IMG/VR virus record: IMGVR_UViG_3300027734_000034
Source of the DNA: a virus
Lineage: Duplodnaviria; Heunggongvirae; Uroviricota; Caudoviricetes
DNA length: 60,908 nt
Direction: 5' to 3' (one strand)
This document shows, in pieces, positions 12,171 through 60,908 of the stretch. A model generated the notes under the pieces. The model ran no database searches and had not been told where the DNA came from. It saw only the letters and a program-made list of their open reading frames with translations. The translations under genes and the position numbers were made by a program. Within the stretch, counting starts at the first letter, position 1, and each line of letters begins with the position of its first letter.

Positions 12171-15100
12171 TTATGCGTATGTTGCACCTATTGTATACCA
12201 TTGCGTAGTAGTAGGAGCCATGTATTGTAATGTAGCATTAGCCCCTTGCGTAAATGCTGCGTTAGCTGCTTGACTATTAATTATACCATTGGTTTGTGGA
12301 TATACTAACAAACTATTTGCACTATTATTAGTAATGTAAACTACTGTTCCTGCTACTGCTGCTGGTAATCTAACACCTGTACCAGAATTCACTGTACTTA
12401 CTATATTAATTTCTGTAGTTAATCCTGTTGCTTGTGCTTGTGTTGTTCCATTAGCAGATATACCAGTAGTAACAGCGCGTGTTATGTAAGCAGTAGCTGT
12501 TATGTTTGCTGCCTGAACAGTTCCACTCGCAGTTACATTACCTGAGAATGTGGTGGCAGATATTGTGTTGGTTGCCAAATTAAATGATATACCAGTTGGA
12601 CCAACCGCATGTGCATAATTTCCACTAGTACTACCACTGATAACTACTGGATAATATGTACCGGTTGTTTGTGCTGTAATTGCACCAAAATCACTTACAT
12701 TAGCATATGCAACATTTAAGTTTGCTACACGGGTAGTGCTTTGTACACTTAGTGGTGCAGTACTTGTTGCTACATTACTAGTGAATGTTGTGGCCGTAAC
12801 TGTTGCATTTACATTTAATCCTGTTAATGTACCAAGTGATGTAACATTAGGTTGACCATTACTTGCAGTATTGAATGTGGCTTGAACGTAATTGGCTTGT
12901 AATAAATTAGCACCTGCTAGTTGTGATGAACCACCGCTCATTGTGATATTACCATTGGCAGCAAATGTAAGACTTGTGAATGAAGTACTGACACTTGTAA
13001 TATTTGGTTGAGCGGCAGTTGTTACTGTACCGGCTGTAGTAGCACTACCTGCACTTACAGCGTATGTTGCATTGGCTACGGTTCCAGTAACATTAGCACC
13101 TACTAATGAACTTAATCCATTGCCGTTGCCAGTAAATACACCTGTGTTTGCTGTAAATGCAACCGCAGTGACTGTACCATTAACTCCCAATGATGTTAAT
13201 GTACCAACACTAGTAATATTACCCTGTGCTGCTGTTGTCACGGTACCAGCAGTAGTTGCTGCACCTGACAATGCACCAACAAATGTAGTAGCAGTAATAG
13301 AAGCATTACCTAAATTAGCACTGATACTTGTATTGATTACCGCAGATGAATTACCATTTGCTGATGAAGTAGAAAATGTTGGGTATACTGTCGTAGAAGT
13401 AGATGTATTCTGTAATAGTGCAGCAGCGTTAGTTGCGCTACCTACGGTACCAGTAACATTAGCACCGACCAACGAACTTAATCCATTGCCATTACCAGTA
13501 AATACACCTGTATTTGCAGTAAATGCTACCGCAGTTACTGTGCCGTTAACGCCAAGTGATGTTAATGTACCAACACTTGTAATATTTGGTTGAGCCGCAG
13601 TTGTTACAGTGCCTGCTGTAGTAGCACTGCCTGCTGTTGCTACACTTAGATTAGCTACTTGTGTCGTACTTGTTACAACAAATGGTGCAGTACCGCCGGC
13701 GACATTAGATATAAATTGTGGACTAGTTACATTAGCACTTGCTAATACTTGCGCCGTGCCTAAGTTACCTACATTAGCATTACCATTTGCATTTAATGTA
13801 CCAGTAATATTAGCACCAGTGCCAGTTGCTATAATTGTAGTAACCCCTGCTGCCGTAATGTTTACATTGCCATTTGATGATGGGATGCTTATATTACTGT
13901 TACCATTTGCTAGTATACCGCCTATGTTACCTGTAATATTACCAACGAATGTAGTAGCAATCAATGCCCCATTCGCTAAGTTAGCACTAATTAGTGTATT
14001 ACTTCCAAGAGCATAATTACCACTAGCACTTGCACTTACAAATACTGGATTCCATGTACCAGTAGTTTGTGTTGTTACCACGCTAAAGTCACTTACATTA
14101 GCATATGAAACATTTAAGTTTGCTACACGATTGGTACTTTGTACACTAAATGGTGCACCAGTCGCAGTTGCTATATTAGATATAAATTGAGGACTTGTTA
14201 CATTAGCACTTGCTAATACTTGTGCTGTGCCTAAATTAAGTACATTAGCATTACCGGATACATTTGCTGTACCAGTAATATTAGCACCAGTTGATGTAAC
14301 AACTAATCTGTTTGCACCTGTAACTGCAATAGCAATATTAGCATTGGCAGTTATTGATACATTGCTATTTCCGTTTTGTAGTAAACTACTGTTGATAGTA
14401 GTAATGTTACCAGTAGTAATGATAGCAGTAGCTGTACCTAAATTACCAACATTAGCATTTCCTGTCCCGGTGTTTAATGTACCGGTAATGTTGGCACCAG
14501 TGCCAGTTACTGTTACTATGCTTGCATTACCCGCTACCCCAATTGTAATATTTCCATTGATTGTACTAATATCGACATTGCTGGTTCCGTTTGCAATTGA
14601 GTTAGCTGCACCATGTAATCTACCTACAAAGTAATTGGCAATTGCACTATTACCTAAGTTAGCATTGGCAGAAGTTAAATCGCCACTAAGGTTAGCATAT
14701 GACCCGTCTACATTACCTAACCAACTTAAACCCCTAGCATTACCTAAATTATTATATGTTACTACATCACTACTAATACTTACATTACTACCAAATGCAA
14801 ATTCGCTATTGCTATTGTCCCATCCCATAAACGCAGTAACCGGAGTAGTAGTGTAATATTGTAATGCACTACCTCTATCTTTTCCGTCATTACTTGTTAA
14901 TGGTGCACCATTAACGCCGCCGCCCAATGATATAATTGGATCTTCGACATTGAATGAATCAACATTATAATATGTTGTATTACCTGCAACTATCAAATTA
15001 CCTGCCATGTAGTTATTAGCGCCACCAAAGTAAGTACTACCATTTGCAATGTACAATGAATATGGATTAGTAATTAATGTAGTTCCTGAATTTGCTGGAC

Positions 15101-53409: not shown

Positions 53410-54897
53410 TCATTTGTATGTAAGTTTTTCAACATCAAATGGATAATTAGCCTCTTTATAAAATGCTTTTCTTTGTGTAAGATGCCGTTTTGCAAACTTA
53501 CAATTACTTGTGATATCCCAAATCTGCACGAAATTTTTATCTTCTGCTTTACGGATACCACGACCAATACTTTGTATCACCCGAACAAAACTCTTACCCG
53601 GTTCAATAAGAACAAGATTAAAGATTCGGGGAATGTTAATACCAACTGCTGCTACACCATAGGTAGCGATAATGATTTTGTTAGTTGCTGTTGCAACTTC
53701 ATCATATTGTTCTTTGCGTTCATCCATACCAGTATTGCCTGATACAAACACCACATCATATTCTGTTTTAAAATTACGCAATAGTTCGGCTAATTTGTTA
53801 TGTAATTCTTTACCGGCTGCCACCCTATCAACAAGTATCAATGTATTACCACTGTTCTTAATTGTATCAACCAATTGAGTAATTTTATTTAATCGTTTAT
53901 CATCTTCAAGTAAGTATTTCAACTCACTCTGGTAGTTACTAAACTCGACACCATCTTGTAATTGAACAATGTTAACATGGCATTGTGATAATACACCTCT
54001 ATCTTGCAATTCACTAGCAGATAGTTTGTTAATAACATTACCTAGACTGATAAAGATAGCTTGACTTGCGAATTTTTCTTTAGGAATAGTACCAGTCAGT
54101 CCCCAACGAATTGGAATCGTACTCATTATTCCAGTCAACAGTTCTTTTAGTGCATCTGCTTTGGCCATGTGAACCTCGTCTACCATGACACAAACTACAC
54201 CTTCAAGGAAGTCACCAATCTCAACTTCTGCTTCACCTGCTTTTGTTTTCTTAAGCATGTTGTTAAGACTCTGCCAAGTACAGATCGTATGTGTCTTGTT
54301 GTATTCTTTTCTATCACCAAAGTATACACCAACATCTAATCCTAGATTAATGTAATCGGCTTCGGTTTGTGTTACAAGACTTTTGTTTGGAACGATAACA
54401 ATACTGCGCCCGTAACTTTCAATAGACCAGCTTAGTGCTGCTGTGATTAATGTCTTGCCAGCGCCTGTAGCAATCTCTTGTAATGATTGTGGGTTCTTTA
54501 GAAACTCATTAATGATTGATATCTGATAGTCACGCAATACTACAGGTTGTCCTGCGATTGGATGACCTTCGGGCCAATTCTTATGTTTGAATGTCTCTTC
54601 GGACACTTCAGCAAAATTGAAAGTTGTACCGTATGTTCGCAAATCCTCTAGTTCAATATCATAGTCCCTGCTATCAATAAAGGGTAGTATTTCGGGTAGT
54701 AGATTGACATAGCTACTACCAGCAAGACTAAAGAAACTTACCTTACCATTCCATCTACCTAACCGTACCGCAGGAAGATACCTTGCACCGGGCACTTCAT
54801 ACTCAAACATCTTTACCAATGCTTTTCGTTCACTTAATTCTAAGCCTTCGATTTTTACATTGACCTCATCCTTGACAATTATTTTGCATTGTTTCAT
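53410..54897 (-). CDS. uvsW: UvsW-like superfamily 2 DNA helicase
   Basis: LRDYQ, ATGAGKT, VDEVH, GLTGT, TYGVAAVGINIP, QSIGRGIR. Confidence 0.92.
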   Translation of the reverse strand: MKQCKIIVKDEVNVKIEGLELSERKALVKMFEYEVPGARYLPAVRLGRWNGKVSFFSLAGSSYVNLLPEILPFIDSRDYDIELEDLRTYGTTFNFAEVSEETFKHKNWPEGHPIAGQPVVLRDYQISIINEFLKNPQSLQEIATGAGKTLITAALSWSIESYGRSIVIVPNKSLVTQTEADYINLGLDVGVYFGDRKEYNKTHTICTWQSLNNMLKKTKAGEAEVEIGDFLEGVVCVMVDEVHMAKADALKELLTGIMSTIPIRWGLTGTIPKEKFASQAIFISLGNVINKLSASELQDRGVLSQCHVNIVQLQDGVEFSNYQSELKYLLEDDKRLNKITQLVDTIKNSGNTLILVDRVAAGKELHNKLAELLRNFKTEYDVVFVSGNTGMDERKEQYDEVATATNKIIIATYGVAAVGINIPRIFNLVLIEPGKSFVRVIQSIGRGIRKAEDKNFVQIWDITSNCKFAKRHLTQRKAFYKEANYPFDVEKLTYK

Positions 54898-54995: not shown

Positions 54996-56027
54996 TCAAA
55001 GATTCTTCATGCAAGTTGACTTCGCAAGTTCATGCCAGTTGCCAGGGTTGATCTTTACCAAGTCAGCAATCTTCAACACCATACGCAGGCTGATCTCACG
55101 CAATTGATTGCAGTTGGCCCACATGTATTCCATGACACTTTCTTCCTGCTCTTTAGTAAAAGCATAGTCAACAAACAAGCCGGGGTCAGCATCACGATGC
55201 ACCTGCTTGATACGCATCATTTTATCACGTTCGGTGTTGATAGTCAAATCCAGAAAGTGACAACGACTTTGCAATGCATCCAAATGAGGTTGCATTTTAC
55301 CTGATTTTTTAGAATCAAACGATTTGTTTGTGATGAAGATGATAGAGCCGTGAAAGTTGAAAGTATTGGGCACTCCCTCTTCGCGTAGAATACGTGAATC
55401 TTTGTTGTAAGAGATACGCCGTGTCTTGCTAGAATCCAATGCACCTTTCAGGATGTTGACCGCATCTTGATCGTCCCAGATATCACAGTCATCAAACACC
55501 AACACGTTTTTAGCGTCAGAATATTTGTACAGTAATACGAACAAGCCGATAGCAGACATCGCGCCTTTGACAGTCTCAAAACGGATCTTGCGATCTGCAA
55601 TATGATCAAACATGCTAGCTTTTTCCATCTGCAATGTCACGCCGTGACTCTTGCCGACACCGGGAGGGCCTGTCACAATCATAGCACGGATATCACCGTT
55701 GATACATGCTTTTGACATCTCATCCAATACTGCAAAACGACCTGCGATACGGTCCATCGCTTCCTTATCAGTCTCGGTAGACACTTCTGCCTTTGCCTTG
55801 AATTCTACTGTATTGCCTACCACCGTTTCTCCATTCATGAATTGAATATCTTCAATGCTTCCGACATTGACACGGACCTGAGGTCCACCCACTGCAAACT
55901 GACCATCATTCTTAACAGTAACAAATCCACCCTTCTTACCAACTTGATAACCTTTGACTAGGGTGAACACTTCACCAGATACAGGGTTATTGCGATAAGA
56001 ACCAGAGAGAATGCGAATTGTTGACAT
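54996..56027 (-). CDS. AAA+ ATPase (SRC motif, clamp-loader-clade-like)
   Basis: GPPGVGKS, LVFDDCD, IIFITN, ALQSRC, ISLR. Confidence 0.85.
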   Translation of the reverse strand: MSTIRILSGSYRNNPVSGEVFTLVKGYQVGKKGGFVTVKNDGQFAVGGPQVRVNVGSIEDIQFMNGETVVGNTVEFKAKAEVSTETDKEAMDRIAGRFAVLDEMSKACINGDIRAMIVTGPPGVGKSHGVTLQMEKASMFDHIADRKIRFETVKGAMSAIGLFVLLYKYSDAKNVLVFDDCDIWDDQDAVNILKGALDSSKTRRISYNKDSRILREEGVPNTFNFHGSIIFITNKSFDSKKSGKMQPHLDALQSRCHFLDLTINTERDKMMRIKQVHRDADPGLFVDYAFTKEQEESVMEYMWANCNQLREISLRMVLKIADLVKINPGNWHELAKSTCMKNL

Positions 56028-56060
56028 AGATAAAATCCTTTATTAACTGATTAAGTAAGC

Positions 56061-56089
56061 ATTATACACTAATGCCCATTTGTTGTCAA
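56061..56089 (-). promoter_or_regulatory. Early promoter repeat (diverged spacer)
   Basis: TTGACA-ACAAATGGGCATTAGTG-TATAAT; the -35 box contains the stop of ORF 56086. Confidence 0.85.
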
Positions 56090-56304
56090 GCCTTGAGTAT
56101 GTCCACGATACGCTGATGTATCAGGTCCATTTCAGCCTGCTCAACATAGAAGTCGGTCTTGGGGTCATAGTACTGACCTTGGGCAGTATCGTAGTACAGG
56201 ACATGACCGGAGAAATTGAAGGGACCTTCTAGACCCTTGCGAGGACCATACTTGGTACGCATCTCATCCATTTGCGTCTTGTCTGCGATAACTTTGTAAC
56301 CCAT
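56086..56304 (-). CDS. Small early protein
   Basis: MGYKVIADK...YYDPKTDFY; true start at 56304 after the AAGGAG RBS. The track extension crosses a promoter. Confidence 0.75.
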   Translation of the reverse strand: MGYKVIADKTQMDEMRTKYGPRKGLEGPFNFSGHVLYYDTAQGQYYDPKTDFYVEQAEMDLIHQRIVDILKA

Positions 56305-56334
56305 CAGAAACTCCTTTTGACTGAATAAGACTCT

Positions 56335-56363
56335 ATTATATACCCAAAACCATTTAATGTCAA
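56335..56363 (-). promoter_or_regulatory. Early promoter repeat (exact 29-mer)
   Basis: TTGACATTAAATGGTTTTGGGTATATAAT. Confidence 0.92.
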
Positions 56364-56554
56364 CTAAAATCACAAGCCTTATAGACTGCTTCCTGTACTG
56401 CGGTATCAGTAACTTCCTCAAAACGCTCGTCCTGAGCCAAGGCCTTGAGCAATCCTCGAACAACAGACCAACTCAAGTTTTGACTGATTGCCAACTTTAC
56501 TATGGATCCAACTGCATCATTACCAGCGTCTGTAAACATTGCGAAATTTGTCAT
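56360..56554 (-). CDS. Small early protein
   Basis: MFTDAGNDAV...; own promoter and AAGGA RBS. Confidence 0.75.
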   Translation of the reverse strand: MTNFAMFTDAGNDAVGSIVKLAISQNLSWSVVRGLLKALAQDERFEEVTDTAVQEAVYKACDFS

Positions 56555-56588
56555 TTTCTAAGTCCTTTAATTAACTGTCTAAGTATGT

Positions 56589-56617
56589 ATTATATACCCA
56601 AAACCATTTAATGTCAA
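56589..56617 (-). promoter_or_regulatory. Early promoter repeat (exact 29-mer)
   Basis: TTGACATTAAATGGTTTTGGGTATATAAT. Confidence 0.92.
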
Positions 56618-56802
56618 GCCGGTAGAACAACTTCAGTTGGAATTTGAGACTCACGCCAGGCATTCATATAGGCTTCACGCTCGGCCCGAACCTTGAGGAT
56701 GCTCCGACTAAAGCGGCGGTCATAGTAGGCCCACGCACCGCTATCTACCCAGGTTTGGCGGCTGCATCGGACTTTGTTTACCTTGTGTTTTCTCATTTTC
56801 AT
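56614..56802 (-). CDS. Small basic early protein
   Basis: Third gene of the cassette; stop lies within the next -35 box. Confidence 0.55.
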   Translation of the reverse strand: MKMRKHKVNKVRCSRQTWVDSGAWAYYDRRFSRSILKVRAEREAYMNAWRESQIPTEVVLPA

Positions 56803-56805
56803 ATA

Positions 56806-57072
56806 TTAAGCCCGGTAAGTAGAATAATTACGGATTTTGCTTTGTTTATTAGCATGGCTTTCGTTGAATTTAATCTCATAACCACGCTGACGTAGTGCAT
56901 TGATCAGTACTGACAGGTCGCAGTCTTCTTCCAAGAAAGCATTGGTACCGTTCTGGTAGCTGTAAGTACTAATCTTATCAGCGATACCAAGTGCTACCAA
57001 CTTTGCTTTGGGGAAGCGGGCCCATGCATGACCCGGGTCTGCGAACACTTTGATAGAGATTTTTTTAGTCAT
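56806..57072 (-). CDS. Small early protein
   Basis: DPGHAW...LG...IS.YSY.....LEEDCD motif; AAGGA RBS. Confidence 0.75.
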   Translation of the reverse strand: MTKKISIKVFADPGHAWARFPKAKLVALGIADKISTYSYQNGTNAFLEEDCDLSVLINALRQRGYEIKFNESHANKQSKIRNYSTYRA

Positions 57073-57083
57073 TTTGAGGTCCT

Positions 57084-57338
57084 TTACAATACTTGAGAAA
57101 CTGAATAGTTATTCACTTTTGTGATATTTTCAACATGCCAATCAATTATAGACTGTTCAGTATTGAGCGGCAATTCTCTAAAGTAAAGAGTTTTGCCTAG
57201 CATTACTTTATCTTTTGCGTTTAGCTTAGTGTAGTCACTAGCAGCAATCAGCAAACAAATTTCTTCGTTGCTGTAGGGCCGCTTTTTGACAGACACTTTA
57301 AAATACAAAGTACTGATTGCATTTGCTTTGAATTTCAT
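57084..57338 (-). CDS. Small early protein
   Basis: AAAGGT RBS after the promoter repeat. Confidence 0.7.
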   Translation of the reverse strand: MKFKANAISTLYFKVSVKKRPYSNEEICLLIAASDYTKLNAKDKVMLGKTLYFRELPLNTEQSIIDWHVENITKVNNYSVSQVL

Positions 57339-57365
57339 AGAGACCTTTCAACTGAATAAGACTCT

Positions 57366-57394
57366 ATTATATACCCAAAACCATTTAATGTCAA
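57366..57394 (-). promoter_or_regulatory. Early promoter repeat (exact 29-mer)
   Basis: TTGACATTAAATGGTTTTGGGTATATAAT. Confidence 0.92.
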
Positions 57395-57609
57395 CCAAGG
57401 ACCTCAGTCACAGTATAATTATACCGTGTATAACCAACGTCAGTGGATCCACCATAACCAGCAAAACTCTTATTGTTCATTGCCAACTTAGCAGTACCCT
57501 TCCGAGCCATTTTTTGTGCCTCGTTGTACCAATAAGCGCCTTCAGTTATCCGTGTATGTCCACTAGCGGTTTCACGCCGTACTACATCAAAATTAAAACT
57601 GCGTACCAT
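57391..57609 (-). CDS. Small early protein
   Basis: MVRSFNFDVV...; start moved to 57609 (GGAG RBS). Confidence 0.65.
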   Translation of the reverse strand: MVRSFNFDVVRRETASGHTRITEGAYWYNEAQKMARKGTAKLAMNNKSFAGYGGSTDVGYTRYNYTVTEVLG

Positions 57610-57610
57610 T

Positions 57611-57742
57611 TTATTGCTCCATCGGGTCACCAAGTGTATACTCGGTGATCCATTCAATTGTAAAATCTTCACCTCTATGTTCTGCAACATAGATGCAAAG
57701 TGCTTCCAGCGTACGGAAAATCAAATCGCCAATTCTATACAT
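57611..57742 (-). CDS. 43-aa protein not in the ORF track
   Basis: MYRIGDLIFRTLEALCIYVAEHRGEDFTIEWITEYTLGDPMEQ; TAATG-coupled to the upstream gene. Confidence 0.6.
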   Translation of the reverse strand: MYRIGDLIFRTLEALCIYVAEHRGEDFTIEWITEYTLGDPMEQ

Positions 57743-58116
57743 TATGCCACCTTCCGAAAATATTGATAGGGCAAGCCCAGATCATAGCACAGATATTCCC
57801 AGTCGCCATTAGCGTTGCTAGCGTCCATGATCCAGCGCAATGCAGTCTCACGGTCACGCGCGCCCATGCAGATAGTGTTGGTGACATGCTGCTCAAACTT
57901 ATCCACAGCTTCCTTCTCAGCAACCTTACGCTGGGCTTCCTCACGCACGATCACAGCTTCCAAACTTGCAAACTCCAGTTGGAAGTCTTGCAGCGTCCAA
58001 GTGCTGGTGTCGATACCACGAGGGCGAACACCATGTGCGTCCTTGTACATATCCCAGTAGATGCACTGGGCTTGTTCCAAGTCAGACATTTGTTCCCAAG
58101 TAGTGAATTCAGACAT
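57742..58116 (-). CDS. Small early protein
   Basis: YWDMYKDAHGVRPR motif; start 58116 after the AAGGA RBS. Confidence 0.8.
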   Translation of the reverse strand: MSEFTTWEQMSDLEQAQCIYWDMYKDAHGVRPRGIDTSTWTLQDFQLEFASLEAVIVREEAQRKVAEKEAVDKFEQHVTNTICMGARDRETALRWIMDASNANGDWEYLCYDLGLPYQYFRKVA

Positions 58117-58145
58117 ATTTGTTCCTTTAATCAATCTAAGCCTCT

Positions 58146-58174
58146 ATTATAGACCCAAAACCATTTAATGTCAA
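58146..58174 (-). promoter_or_regulatory. Early promoter repeat (1 mismatch)
   Basis: TTGACATTAAATGGTTTTGGGTCTATAAT. Confidence 0.92.
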
Positions 58175-58368
58175 CCGAAAACAAATTCCCTGACCCACTC
58201 AAAACGGGTAGTAGAAGGGACCCACTTGAAGTGTTCCCGCTTGCGGCTTATCTTCTCAAAATCCATGCAGACCATGACCCAACCCTTCTCAGGGCTGAAG
58301 CCAACTGTTTCTGCAACACGGACTACTTCGACCATGCTGCCGTCTGTCATCTTTGCTACAGTAGTCAT
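58171..58368 (-). CDS. Small early protein
   Basis: AAGGAG RBS; stop lies within the next -35 box. Confidence 0.7.
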   Translation of the reverse strand: MTTVAKMTDGSMVEVVRVAETVGFSPEKGWVMVCMDFEKISRKREHFKWVPSTTRFEWVREFVFG

Positions 58369-58378
58369 TTTCTACTCC

Positions 58379-58540
58379 TTACGCAAACGATCCACGCACT
58401 TCTTTAGCGCCGGGGATTTCTTCACATTCACATACCCAGTCAGAGAATGATTCGTAGTATCCCACGAAATACTCCGGACGCATTTCAGTCTTGCAGTATG
58501 GGCACACTGGCATCACAATTGGTTCTATTTTTTCAGACAT
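58379..58540 (-). CDS. 53-aa Zn-ribbon-like protein not in the ORF track
   Basis: MSEKIEPIVMPVCPYCKTEM...WVCECEEIPGAKEVRGSFA; AAGGAG RBS after the promoter. Confidence 0.75.
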   Translation of the reverse strand: MSEKIEPIVMPVCPYCKTEMRPEYFVGYYESFSDWVCECEEIPGAKEVRGSFA

Positions 58541-58570
58541 AATGTTCTCCTTTAATCAATCTAAGAGTAC

Positions 58571-58599
58571 ATTATATACCCAAAACCATTTAATGTCAA
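58571..58599 (-). promoter_or_regulatory. Early promoter repeat (exact 29-mer)
   Basis: TTGACATTAAATGGTTTTGGGTATATAAT. Confidence 0.92.
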
Positions 58600-58672
58600 G
58601 TTTGGGTAACCTTATTTACCGCAGATTCAGCATCTTTTTTTCCTGTAGGACCGAAAAAGTGCCATGGATATC

Positions 58673-58719
58673 CGTGTACTACGGCTACCCACCCGGGGGT
58701 TTTCCTGCCGTAGTACACG
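58673..58719. repeat. Perfect 13-bp inverted repeat (hairpin) with 21-nt loop
   Basis: CGTGTACTACGGC (58673-58685) and GCCGTAGTACACG (58707-58719). Confidence 0.9.
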
Positions 58720-58723
58720 CTTG

Positions 58724-58752
58724 CTTTTACCAAAAAAGCCATTTAATGTCAA
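58724..58752 (-). promoter_or_regulatory. Early promoter repeat (degenerate -10)
   Basis: TTGACA-TTAAATGGCTTTTTTGG-TAAAAG. Confidence 0.65.
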
Positions 58753-59024
58753 TCCTTTTTCATAACATATTCAAACAGGATCCACTTGGCACGATTGAGA
58801 CATTGACGGGCATCTTCGGCCCGCATGAAGTCAACTTCACCGTACTCGGTGCTGACCATTTCTTGGGCGTCACTCATCAGGCTAGCAGCCATCATAGCAG
58901 GACCGGAGAATTTGAAAGTGAAACTAGATTCCACAGACTCACGCATACCTGCTTCGGTCACGCCATACATGCGGACTTCACGCTTTTGTTTCTCGGTCAG
59001 TAGATCATACACGGTTGCAGTCAT
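58749..59024 (-). CDS. Small early protein
   Basis: AAGGAG RBS after the promoter; stop lies within the next -35 box. Confidence 0.75.
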   Translation of the reverse strand: MTATVYDLLTEKQKREVRMYGVTEAGMRESVESSFTFKFSGPAMMAASLMSDAQEMVSTEYGEVDFMRAEDARQCLNRAKWILFEYVMKKD

Positions 59025-59057
59025 AAAAAGCTCCTTTAGTTAACTGTCTATAAGAGC

Positions 59058-59086
59058 ATTATATACCCAAAACCATTTAATGTCAA
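59058..59086 (-). promoter_or_regulatory. Early promoter repeat (exact 29-mer)
   Basis: TTGACATTAAATGGTTTTGGGTATATAAT. Confidence 0.92.
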
Positions 59087-59958
59087 GTTTTGGTAAAGTC
59101 TATTTCCCAGTTTTTTAGATGAAAATAACTAATTCCGTCCCGTTCCATATGCTTATAAAGCCCTTCTAGGGGAACAGAATCTTGCTCAAAAAAGTGTTCC
59201 CAAAGATGATTCAATTTGTTGTCAAGTGGAATTTCAATTTTGCAAAGTTTGTTGTCATCATCTTTCAACCAGTATTCTGAAAATTTATTTGTTTTATGTT
59301 TAACAACAAACTTTTTAATAGGCTTTAAAGTTTTTGTACCTGACCAGGCTGTAGTGTGTACGGGGAATTCAAACCTTGTATTCAATTCTCTAACCATTTC
59401 ATCAAATTCAATATCATATTCATAGAATTCAGGTAGACGATAAATTATCGGCATCAATTCTTCTCTGACTACTTTACTATCACCGTGGATAAATGTACTT
59501 AAATCTTTTCTAAATTTAGTTAACCTTTGTTCACGCAAGGTCAACACCACGAGTTTCTTGCTGTAATAATCACGGATGACATTAGCCTTATCTCTATCTT
59601 CCTGAATCATTTCTCTGAACAAGATACTATCAGTAAGTTTAGTCGGTCTATCATTGGGATTAGCTAAAATATCAATTTTGTGACTGAGCAGTGTTCGCAA
59701 TCTATGCCAAGTAACACTCAATGCTAATACATCTTCTGTAGTCTCATACACTTCATATTTTTTTACATACGAACTATCTTGATACAAGTCATCCCAAGAT
59801 GTAGTACCATTCAATCCTGCAAGAGTATGAATATTGAGTGGTGAGGGGTTTTGTGTAGTAGCCCCGATGCTACCTTTAGTGATAGCATTACCATATATTG
59901 CAAGTTGTTTCTGTACTGCAAGTTGTTTCTGTAGTATGTTTATGCTTGAATTAGCCAA
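59083..59958 (-). CDS. Hypothetical early protein (291 aa, TTG start)
   Basis: Long ORF after TTGACA-N17-TAAAAT; stop lies within the next -35 box. Confidence 0.75.
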   Translation of the reverse strand: MANSSINILQKQLAVQKQLAIYGNAITKGSIGATTQNPSPLNIHTLAGLNGTTSWDDLYQDSSYVKKYEVYETTEDVLALSVTWHRLRTLLSHKIDILANPNDRPTKLTDSILFREMIQEDRDKANVIRDYYSKKLVVLTLREQRLTKFRKDLSTFIHGDSKVVREELMPIIYRLPEFYEYDIEFDEMVRELNTRFEFPVHTTAWSGTKTLKPIKKFVVKHKTNKFSEYWLKDDDNKLCKIEIPLDNKLNHLWEHFFEQDSVPLEGLYKHMERDGISYFHLKNWEIDFTKT

Positions 59959-59984
59959 TTGTATATTCCATGTTAATATGAGTT

Positions 59985-60013
59985 ATTTTACTATAGAAAA
60001 TAAAGAATGTCAA
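59985..60013 (-). promoter_or_regulatory. sigma70-type early promoter
   Basis: TTGACA-TTCTTTATTTTCTATAG-TAAAAT. Confidence 0.75.
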
Positions 60014-60084
60014 TATTTTTTTGCCCTATTACGCCTGCGGGTTGCTTCTTCTTCCCCAAATATTTCTTCCCAAGTTTTTCCTTT
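60010..60084 (-). pseudogene. Startless remnant of a homing-endonuclease-type DNA-binding repeat
   Basis: KGKTWEEIFGEEEATRRRNRAKKY*, preceded in frame by TGA TAA. Confidence 0.45.
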
Positions 60085-60095
60085 TTATCAAAATA

Positions 60096-60557
60096 TTACG
60101 ATATTGATATATCTTCCATGCCGGCCGCTCTTAAACGTACAATGTGACCTAGCATGAAATTTTTTGATTCAAATGCTTTGATTATACCAAGCCAACGATT
60201 CCTTAATAATGCTACTTCGTTAATCAATATTTCATATTCAATAACTTCATCTTCACCCTCAACATACTTGTCAGCATCACGGCTTGTCAATGCTCTATTA
60301 TATGCTTCTAAATATTTTTGAAAATGTGTTCGGCGAATTTTCCGTAACTGAATATTCAAGTAGTTAAGTACCGCTTCCACTTCTTGTAACTGATTGAATC
60401 TATGTTCGGTAATGCCGGGTAAAGCGGCAATGTTCTTTTCAACATTGCCGTATATCTTTACCTCTTTCTTAGCATTATCTAATTCAGTTTCAAAGTGTTG
60501 AATAAAATCAGGTATCACAGCCAGATTGACTGTTATCCTTGTGTACCAATTTGACAT
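60096..60557 (-). CDS. uvsY: UvsY-like recombination mediator
   Basis: YLEAYNRALTSRDA.KY.EGE...LLRN.WLGI.KA.E.K.FMLG.I..LR.AGMED. Confidence 0.8.
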   Translation of the reverse strand: MSNWYTRITVNLAVIPDFIQHFETELDNAKKEVKIYGNVEKNIAALPGITEHRFNQLQEVEAVLNYLNIQLRKIRRTHFQKYLEAYNRALTSRDADKYVEGEDEVIEYEILINEVALLRNRWLGIIKAFESKNFMLGHIVRLRAAGMEDISIS

Positions 60558-60800
60558 TTAATCCCATTCGTCTAAGTCATCTTCTTCAAAATCTTCATCT
60601 TCCTCTGGAAAATGCTCGTCTGCATAACCCTTCAATGCTTTAGTGATATCTTTGTCCTTGAAGGCATCTTTGATATCTTCAATCTCATAATTGTTATCAA
60701 TTAAAAAATTAACAAGAGTATCTGCCGCATCATCACGCTCACTTAAATCAATATGTTCACGCAATGCATCCCAAACTTCAGCGATTATATCTAAACTCAT
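60558..60800 (-). CDS. Small acidic hypothetical protein
   Basis: GGAGG RBS, ATGA overlap, D/E-rich tail. Confidence 0.7.
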   Translation of the reverse strand: MSLDIIAEVWDALREHIDLSERDDAADTLVNFLIDNNYEIEDIKDAFKDKDITKALKGYADEHFPEEDEDFEEDDLDEWD

Positions 60801-60908
60801 TCTGTAACTTCCTCCTTAGATGTTACATTACTTATCACACTTTTAGTTTTTCCTGTATATTCAAGCATTACTTTATCTAGTATGCCGTCTTTGTTAGCTT
60901 CCCAACCT
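60797..60908 (-). CDS. 3' end of a gene entering from the right edge (possibly RecA/UvsX-like by context)
   Basis: Open frame GWEANKDGILDKVMLEY...EEVTE* overlapping the next ATG; identity inferred only from proximity to uvsY. Confidence 0.35.
   Translation of the reverse strand, partial: GWEANKDGILDKVMLEYTGKTKSVISNVTSKEEVTE

Follow-up and report, generated by a model that had tools for sequence, protein, structure and literature searches.

Promoter-early stem-loop (PeSL) cassettes have been described in the T4-type phages RB49/phi1, PST/T4 and nt-1/KVP40 (PMC2839356, PMC4122927). One of the five PeSL subclasses carries a stem-loop overlapping the -35 box (Arbiol et al., PMC2839356). Mini-circles that arise when flanking elements exchange, for which RB49 ORF192 and ORF210 were examined by inverse PCR, and promoter and terminator activity are also among the features of PeSL. 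The present analysis concerns an array of small genes and repeated promoters at positions 56061-60013 of a stretch of viral DNA of 60,908 nucleotides (nt), referred to as the window. The window corresponds to G000:C1:30120-91027 of the 171-kb IMG/VR virus record IMGVR_UViG_3300027734_000034, G000 being the window's own genome. Promoter cassettes of the T4 type are already known; the array described here is a tighter variant of them, with the stop codon of the upstream gene inside the -35 box of the next promoter, and it belongs to a jumbo-phage lineage. Related loci are designated by L-numbers; the open reading frames (ORFs) of all loci were clustered into numbered families and then mapped.

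The initial annotation of the window had likened the array to the mobile early-promoter cassettes of T4-type phages, and this likeness is apt, since most of the features that define PeSL were found. Similar to PeSL, a near-perfect sigma70 promoter, a Shine-Dalgarno sequence and an ATG are repeated before small ORFan genes in a hyperplastic region. The upstream stop codon lies very near the -35 box, and insertions, deletions and replacements among relatives are bounded by the repeats. Degraded half-elements are present in both systems, and two copies of the array (59086 and 58599) have a stem-loop over the -35 box, as in the PeSL subclass mentioned above. However, the AT-rich spacer of PeSL is absent here, where only a 3-nt A tract (positions -5 to -3) is conserved. 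The entire 17-nt spacer of the promoter is conserved across more than 100 contigs, whereas the copies of RB49 share only a G/C hairpin, and most copies of the present array have no hairpin. The phage also differs, being a jumbo myovirus nearest to PA5oct and Atu_ph07 and not a member of the Straboviridae, with UvsX-like and UvsW-like genes present.

Phage PA5oct, the nearest cultured relative according to the tail sheath and a P-loop protein, depends on the host RNA polymerase, and its promoters read TTGAC/TATAATA (Lood et al. 2020, PMC7318152), similar to those of the array. Unlike in the array, the spacers of the PA5oct early promoters all differ, there is no repeated module, and the upstream stops are mostly 20-100 nt away. 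With a probability of about 70%, we consider the locus to be a compact PeSL-like cassette array, in which the promoter modules act as recombination patches and the overlap of stop codon and -35 box results from compaction.

Promoter repeat of the array

Nine sigma70-type promoters, all on the minus strand, are present within 56061-60013. Sequence search and consensus scoring confirmed the five exact 29-mers, the copy with one mismatch and the three diverged sites of the initial annotation. The 29-mer TTGACATTAAATGGTTTTGGGTATATAAT is found exactly at 56335-56363, 56589-56617, 57366-57394, 58571-58599 and 59058-59086, and with one mismatch at 58146-58174; no copies are expected by chance (none in 100 shuffles). 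All nine sites have a 17-nt spacer. The six 29-mer copies score 12/12 against TTGACA-17-TATAAT, as does the promoter at 56061-56089, which has a diverged spacer and is the predicted driver of the conserved right-flank gene. The promoter at 59985-60013 reads TTGACA-17-TAAAAT (11/12), and its spacer is unrelated to the repeat. The third diverged site, at 58724-58752, is a degenerate copy, homologous to a normal copy in relatives without family 39. It keeps TTGACA and AAATGG, but its -10 box reads TAAAAG, and the copy is therefore probably dead. The array accordingly holds seven or eight live promoters in 4 kb. The semi-conserved leader given in the initial annotation is present as well: downstream of each live copy are CTTA, AGTT and AAAGGA(G) and then the ATG, which is 25-35 nt past the -10 box.

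Among the matches listed, the 29-mer is exact in more than 107 IMG/VR contigs. Identity in the spacer is 0.88-0.99 versus 0.74-0.87 in the flanking coding sequence, a comparison that carries some selection bias. The motif AAATGG (29-mer positions 9-14) is retained even where the rest of the spacer has diverged. Together with the TAA of the -10 box, which lies in the same frame, the ATG of this motif delimits a mini-ORF of five codons, although this frame is a consequence of the fixed spacing. The genome of the window encodes two other arrays with the same promoter family. In the array at G000 12861-14292 (plus strand), the upstream stop is supplied by three of the four copies, and in that at G000 114031-116632 (minus strand), the stops are found 4-8 nt upstream.

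It is highly improbable that the repeat is an element other than a promoter, such as a recombination site, a protein-binding site or a terminator. The conservation of the spacer far past the needs of sigma70 and the hairpins in a subset of copies would agree with such an element, but the hexamers are perfect, exactly 17 nt apart, and always in the orientation of the genes. They also hold a constant position, 25-35 nt before the Shine-Dalgarno sequence and ATG, and persist where the spacer diverges. Furthermore, where the -10 box is broken, the leader is gone and the copy has turned into coding sequence.

Stop codons within the -35 box

According to the initial annotation, the TGA of TTGACA is the stop codon of the upstream frame at all nine promoters. 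In the window this is the case for eight ORFs on the minus strand, which end exactly at this TGA. They are the genes of family 0 (56086-56304, 72 amino acids (aa) from ATG, a very large unnamed family), family 54 (56360-56554, 64 aa), family 106 (56614-56802, 62 aa), family 31 (57391-57609, 72 aa), family 61 (58171-58368, 65 aa), family 39 (58596-58742, 48 aa), family 2 (58749-59024, 91 aa, ORFan) and family 3 (59083-59958, up to 291 aa, ORFan). The family 2 gene ends at the TGA of the degenerate -35 box.

Two of the nine frames had been added as short calls in the initial annotation, and they fared differently. The 48-aa frame of family 39 is conserved without insertions or deletions in eight distinct relatives and is therefore probably a real microgene. 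The other, at 60010-60084, possesses 24 sense codons and no start codon, and the live gene upstream of it ends at 60096. This frame matches the C-terminal residues of a homing endonuclease of 220 aa with GIY-YIG and NUMOD3 domains, which is intact at L065:1764-2426, where it also stops at the -35 TGA. Eight of the nine frames are thus predicted to be live genes and the ninth a startless relic of the endonuclease. A stop in an AT-rich tract upstream of the promoter, as in PeSL, was not found in the window; at eight of the nine sites the stop lies within the -35 hexamer.

The counts in related phages cover the listed 29-mer contigs and the window's own genome, with 376 copies (at most 3 mismatches) and 249 unique upstream contexts. 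In 100 of the 249 contexts, the -35 TGA terminates the longest upstream ORF; in about 60 this ORF stops 4-12 nt before the hexamer, and in seven it reads through into the promoter. For about a quarter of the related copies, the preceding gene has a TAA of its own in the A tract just upstream. When the 83 gene families found upstream of a copy were counted, which reduces the effect of shared ancestry, the commonest stop was the -35 TGA in 38 families and read-through in two. Random frames would give one third each, so the frame bias is very strong and not due to chance. The coincidence of stop codon and -35 box reported for the window recurs in homologous arrays, and the outcome that would have refuted the initial annotation was not observed.

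The stop codon lies within the -35 hexamer in 40-46% of cases here versus 1 of 31 sites in RB49, where most stops are TAA codons within an A-rich tract, 6-24 nt upstream. PA5oct has the stop in the -35 box at two of 29 candidate sites, the spacers of which share nothing. It is only in this clade that the arrangement is typical, and a literature search gave no report of phage early promoters in which a stop codon overlaps the -35 box. A comparable economy is known from the ATGA and TAATG overlaps of translationally coupled phage genes, in which one stretch also serves two signals and intergenic space is removed. However, the second signal in the array is a transcription signal, the -35 box, and not a start codon. 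Such stop/start overlaps are present in the window at 57742 and 57610.

Recoding of TGA was considered and rejected. TGA is an ordinary stop, terminating 72 of the 216 ORFs of at least 60 aa in the window's genome, and an in-frame TAA follows two codons past the -35 TGA.

Hairpins around the -35 box

Some of the copies have the -35 box in the loop of a hairpin, with the left arm CCCAAAAC and the right arm GTTTTGGG, the latter in the conserved spacer. The element at 59058-59094 consists of the exact 29-mer and the upstream arm ACCAAAAC, which pairs with GGTTTTGG in the spacer. The element at 58571-58607, with the upstream arm ACCCAAAC, likewise forms a hairpin around the -35 box. Both hairpins (copies 59086 and 58599) have stems of 8 bp. 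The junction of 81 nt at 59020-59100 folds at -18.3 kcal/mol (z -3.1) and that of 77 nt at 58536-58612 at -18.8 kcal/mol (z -2.7), while the five other copies that were folded are no different from shuffles. Among the relatives, stems of at least 8 bp are present in 40 of 242 contexts versus 13 in the shuffled control, and compensatory stem variants were found, among them the pairing of CACCCAATAC with GTATTGGGTG and that of ACCCAAAG with CTTTGGGT.

The initial annotation described the cassettes as free of spacers and terminators. The part on terminators is inaccurate in view of the two 8-bp hairpins, and the part on spacers does not hold either, since 82 nt precede the promoter at 60013. The family 3 gene ends at the -35 TGA in 19 related copies, and other relatives possess a family 3 with a different C-terminus and a terminator hairpin. 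In L108, L053 and L092, a G+C hairpin and its T run separate this different C-terminus from the promoter, a layout that predicts a classic terminator-promoter unit.

Cassette turnover among related loci

The maps of 53 related loci have conserved flanks, with the family order 14-10-7-5-4-3 on one side and 9-15-17-25-51 on the other, and variable content between them. The order in the window is 2, 39, P, 129, 61, P, 6, 31, P, 16, 8, 106, P, 54, P, 0, where P is a promoter copy. Locus L114 has 2, P, 185, P, 41, P, 6, 53, 31, P, 8, 106, P, 54, P, 0, and L067 has only 0, P, P, 11. Pairs of promoters without a gene between them, as they appear in some maps, were rejected as an artefact of the ORF filter; the two closest copies are 195 nt apart and have a small ORF between them.

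Internal end points of homology to the window amount to 355, and 46% of them fall in the promoter modules, which make up 9.6% of the span. The remaining end points are mostly located at gene borders, at which a promoter is present in the relative but absent from the window. The initial annotation suggested that cassettes are shuffled at the repeats. Gain, loss and replacement of cassettes were found, with breaks clustering at the promoter modules. Reordering was not observed, since the order of the array is colinear across relatives. The slot after family 2 is filled by unrelated cassettes, namely 129-61, 185, 41 or 165. Identity to the window is mosaic: in three successive aligned segments of the array and left flank it is 94%, 76% and 92% in L100, and 95%, 84% and 91% in L097.

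The clearest single cassette is that of family 8, whose gene (56806-57072, 88 aa) ends with TAA in the window and at the -35 TGA in most relatives. The cassette of 279 nt (56808-57086), from the ribosome site to the -35 TGA, is 88.5% identical in L019, L026, L036, L073, L079 and L089, and homology stops at both cassette borders in these six loci. There the cassette is found in another array, with flanks that match G000 106-114 kb at 80-81%. Locus L073 has a family 0 gene in the slot of family 8 in this other array, and the window's own genome has families 18, 0 and 120 in the corresponding slot.

Smaller changes are also present. Between the family 16 gene (57084-57338, 84 aa, own TAA) and family 8, the promoter and leader of about 66 nt that follow family 16 in relatives such as L030, L096 and L109 are gone in the window, L076 and L091 (57073-57086). 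Two TAAA repeats bound this deletion, which spares the ribosome site. Family 106 is located between family 8 and the promoter of the latter, 3 nt after the TAA (56802-56808). The two gene ends both read GGCT before the stop, which suggests an insertion at a short repeat. The start codon of family 39 is the ATG of AAATGG in the dead promoter, and the last codons of family 2, 10 nt upstream, contain AAGGA, which is similar to a ribosome site. A 13-bp hairpin is found inside the family 39 ORF, with a compensatory stem change in L018. Family 39 may be a gene born from, or fused to, the dead promoter.

It is improbable that the locus reflects purely vertical conservation, with ordinary regulatory sites, independent deletions and a stop overlap that is a neutral by-product without a role in mobility. 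The colinear order is in agreement with such a history, as are deletions at short repeats like the loss of the promoter between families 16 and 8 and a 13-nt deletion in family 18. However, unrelated cassettes share a slot, both after family 2 and in the other array (family 8 or 0). Identity along the array is mosaic, and the family 8 cassette is more similar between arrays (88.5%) than its flanks (80-81%).

A further explanation is that homing endonucleases drive the turnover, a Seg-like GIY-YIG enzyme cutting the DNA and repair co-converting the neighbouring cassettes, with the promoters as passive border marks. The Seg and Mob enzymes of T4 are known for local co-conversion (PMC4122927). 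The GIY-YIG/NUMOD3 gene of L065, which is Seg-like, is intact at the head of the array and its relic is present in the window; a second member of this family (family 186) is found elsewhere in L114. Nonetheless, this explanation seems improbable, as there is only one such gene among the 53 related maps of the array and the break points are spread over many promoter copies along 4 kb instead of surrounding one cut site. The single 279-nt cassette bounded exactly by modules also fits exchange at the repeats.

We infer homologous recombination of the UvsX/UvsW type as the agent of these exchanges. Contrary to the initial annotation, which saw no recombinase adjacent to the array, there is a gene for a UvsX-like recombinase about 0.8 kb upstream, ending at 60797, and one for a UvsW-like helicase on the other side, at 53410-54897, although adjacency proves nothing. 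The analogy with integrons drawn in the initial annotation is unsupported. Integrons are similar in that small promiscuous genes form arrays bounded by a repeated site abutting the stop codon. They use a single Pc, without a promoter for each cassette, together with the tyrosine recombinase IntI and attC hairpins, whereas every cassette of the present array has its own promoter. No tyrosine integrase (PF00589) was detected in the 171-kb record, of which an estimated 49% or so is complete, and the same profile matches 14 of 14 control genomes; an integron-like system was rejected on this result. The seven or eight live promoters in 4 kb also differ from the one common promoter of integrons.

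Origin of the stop overlap

Positions -5 to -1 before the -35 box are conserved as AAA(G/A)(G/C), both where the gene stops at the TGA and where it has an upstream TAA. The module therefore extends by a few bases into the gene upstream, whose final one or two codons it determines. Three families retain intermediate states. The protein of family 18 ends in EFA in both states: four loci have a TAA of their own and a spacer of 9 nt, and five others, with a deletion of 13 nt, end with GCT-TGA. In family 171, a single-base change of TAA to AAA adds two residues before the -35 TGA. Family 8 has the same last residues with TAA (window) or with the -35 TGA (most relatives). Since nearly the same protein end occurs with the gene's own stop or with the TGA, the overlap appears to be compaction that followed once the gene was in place. 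The TGA would seem to be a fail-safe stop at a site of extreme compaction, and not a capture device.

The initial annotation had proposed that a crossover at the repeat cuts the incoming ORF and hands it both its stop and the promoter of the next gene, in which case many of the genes would be truncated or new. Some observations favour such a capture. The conserved positions -5 to -1 dictate the final one or two codons ahead of the TGA. The proteins of families 2 and 0 are conserved except for the C-terminal two to five residues, which vary. In family 2, the last three codons differ among relatives (KKD, KQD, KRD, PKT, SPKD), and identity is 0.51 at positions -9 to -1, 0.87 upstream of them and 0.99 in the 29-mer, which is evidence from alignment that the junction itself may turn over. 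The tail variant PKT is the hairpin arm CCCAAAAC, which is also present before promoter copies behind unrelated genes. The start of family 39 at an ATG within a dead promoter copy points in the same direction.

Nevertheless, capture is unlikely as the general origin of the overlap, because families 18, 171 and 8 keep their C-terminus with either stop. Homologues of family 0 differ by only 0-3 residues in C-terminal length. The longer C-termini that the initial annotation anticipated in homologues of the cassette genes were not seen, as no clearly longer homologue was found. In addition, the quarter of copies behind genes with their own TAA just upstream does not fit a stop supplied by the repeat.

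Proposed organisation of the array

In the compact PeSL-like array favoured here, the locus would be a hyperplastic early region, in which one to three small ORFan genes follow a near-invariant regulatory module of about 75 nt. The module consists of a short A-rich tract, a perfect -35/-10 pair, the conserved 17-nt spacer, the semi-conserved leader and a Shine-Dalgarno sequence. Under tight packing, the upstream ORF ends inside the module at one of two stops, the TGA of TTGACA or a TAA of the A tract 4-8 nt earlier. The -35 TGA would be the last stop usable before the ribosome runs through the promoter and leader of the next gene, so that the loss of a gene's own stop and spacer, by a small deletion or a point change, would be tolerated only in the frame that hits this TGA. 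We infer selection for such compaction. The modules may further serve as portable patches of homology, recombination between them deleting, inserting and swapping cassettes within and between arrays. With the stop inside or adjoining the repeat, every cassette would stay a complete ORF after any exchange.

Several observations weigh against this reading. The hairpin that defines PeSL is present in only two of the nine copies of the window. The contigs are related and the copy counts are not independent, a dependence that the count by family lessens and does not remove. Given the colinear order within the array, differential loss could account for much of the variation. Promoter activity and early timing are predictions from consensus and position. 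Finally, the spacer is conserved far beyond the needs of sigma70 binding, which hints at an extra role not accounted for by compaction; the spacer might contain a regulator site or a recombination site, or serve as a hairpin arm.

It is also conceivable, if doubtful, that the module is a purpose-built cassette boundary made up of the A tract, the -35 TGA with the tandem TAA, an optional hairpin, the spacer and the leader. If so, any DNA between two copies would be transcribed, translated and cleanly terminated. Genes could be traded between arrays and genomes by homologous exchange and could even be created, family 39 being an example, and the conserved spacer would be a recombination or regulator site besides its part in the promoter.

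The array extends promoter-cassette shuffling, so far described from few cultured T4-type phages, to abundant uncultured freshwater jumbo phages, for which more than 100 natural contigs form a ready comparative data set. It offers a clean and countable case of one hexamer that is both a transcription signal and a stop codon, with intermediates that trace the evolution of the overlap. Questions raised by the array are the cause of the invariant spacer, a possible attenuation of read-through by the hairpins, and the movement of single genes of 200-300 nt between arrays. A promoter, a stop and a ribosome site within about 75 nt and without a spacer may also interest builders of compact expression arrays.

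Other genes of the array and its flanks

The remaining genes are likewise encoded on the minus strand. On the left flank, the conserved family 4 gene (60096-60557, 153 aa, no known family) has its own TAA, 82 nt before the first promoter, and almost every related locus has this gene, in the order 14-10-7-5-4-3. Within the array, the family 129 gene (58379-58540, 53 aa) possesses cysteine pairs and has its own stop. The family 6 gene (57742-58116, 124 aa) is followed by a 43-aa ORF (57611-57742) that overlaps its stop by one base. The DNA of this ORF is 91-95% identical to a stretch of L030 and L076 called family 53, which is there followed by a promoter. On the right flank, the conserved gene at 54996-56027 encodes a P-loop protein of 343 aa (phrog_1250).

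A PHROG scan of the cassette proteins gave one match, family 6 to phrog_21968 (function unknown), and a Pfam scan gave none, except for a sub-threshold OCRE match of family 0. The guanine-plus-cytosine (GC) content is 42-53% in the small-gene part (56000-59000) versus 32-36% in family 3 and the left flank (59000-60900).

Phage lineage

The phage that harbours the array is an uncultured freshwater jumbo myovirus outside the Straboviridae. The record of the window has an estimated completeness of about 49% and a GC content of 38.7%. A megablast search of 55000-60908 against cultured phage records gave no match. At the protein level, the nearest cultured phages are PA5oct, Atu_ph07 and Phosso, to which the tail sheath has 44% aa identity over about 60% of the protein. 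The flanking P-loop protein is 38% identical in aa to its counterpart in PA5oct.

Family 0 has 2057 homologues among metagenome proteins (E <= 0.001), with several paralogues per genome. One of these homologues is encoded on a contig of 348,810 bp, which may be a complete genome of this type of phage.

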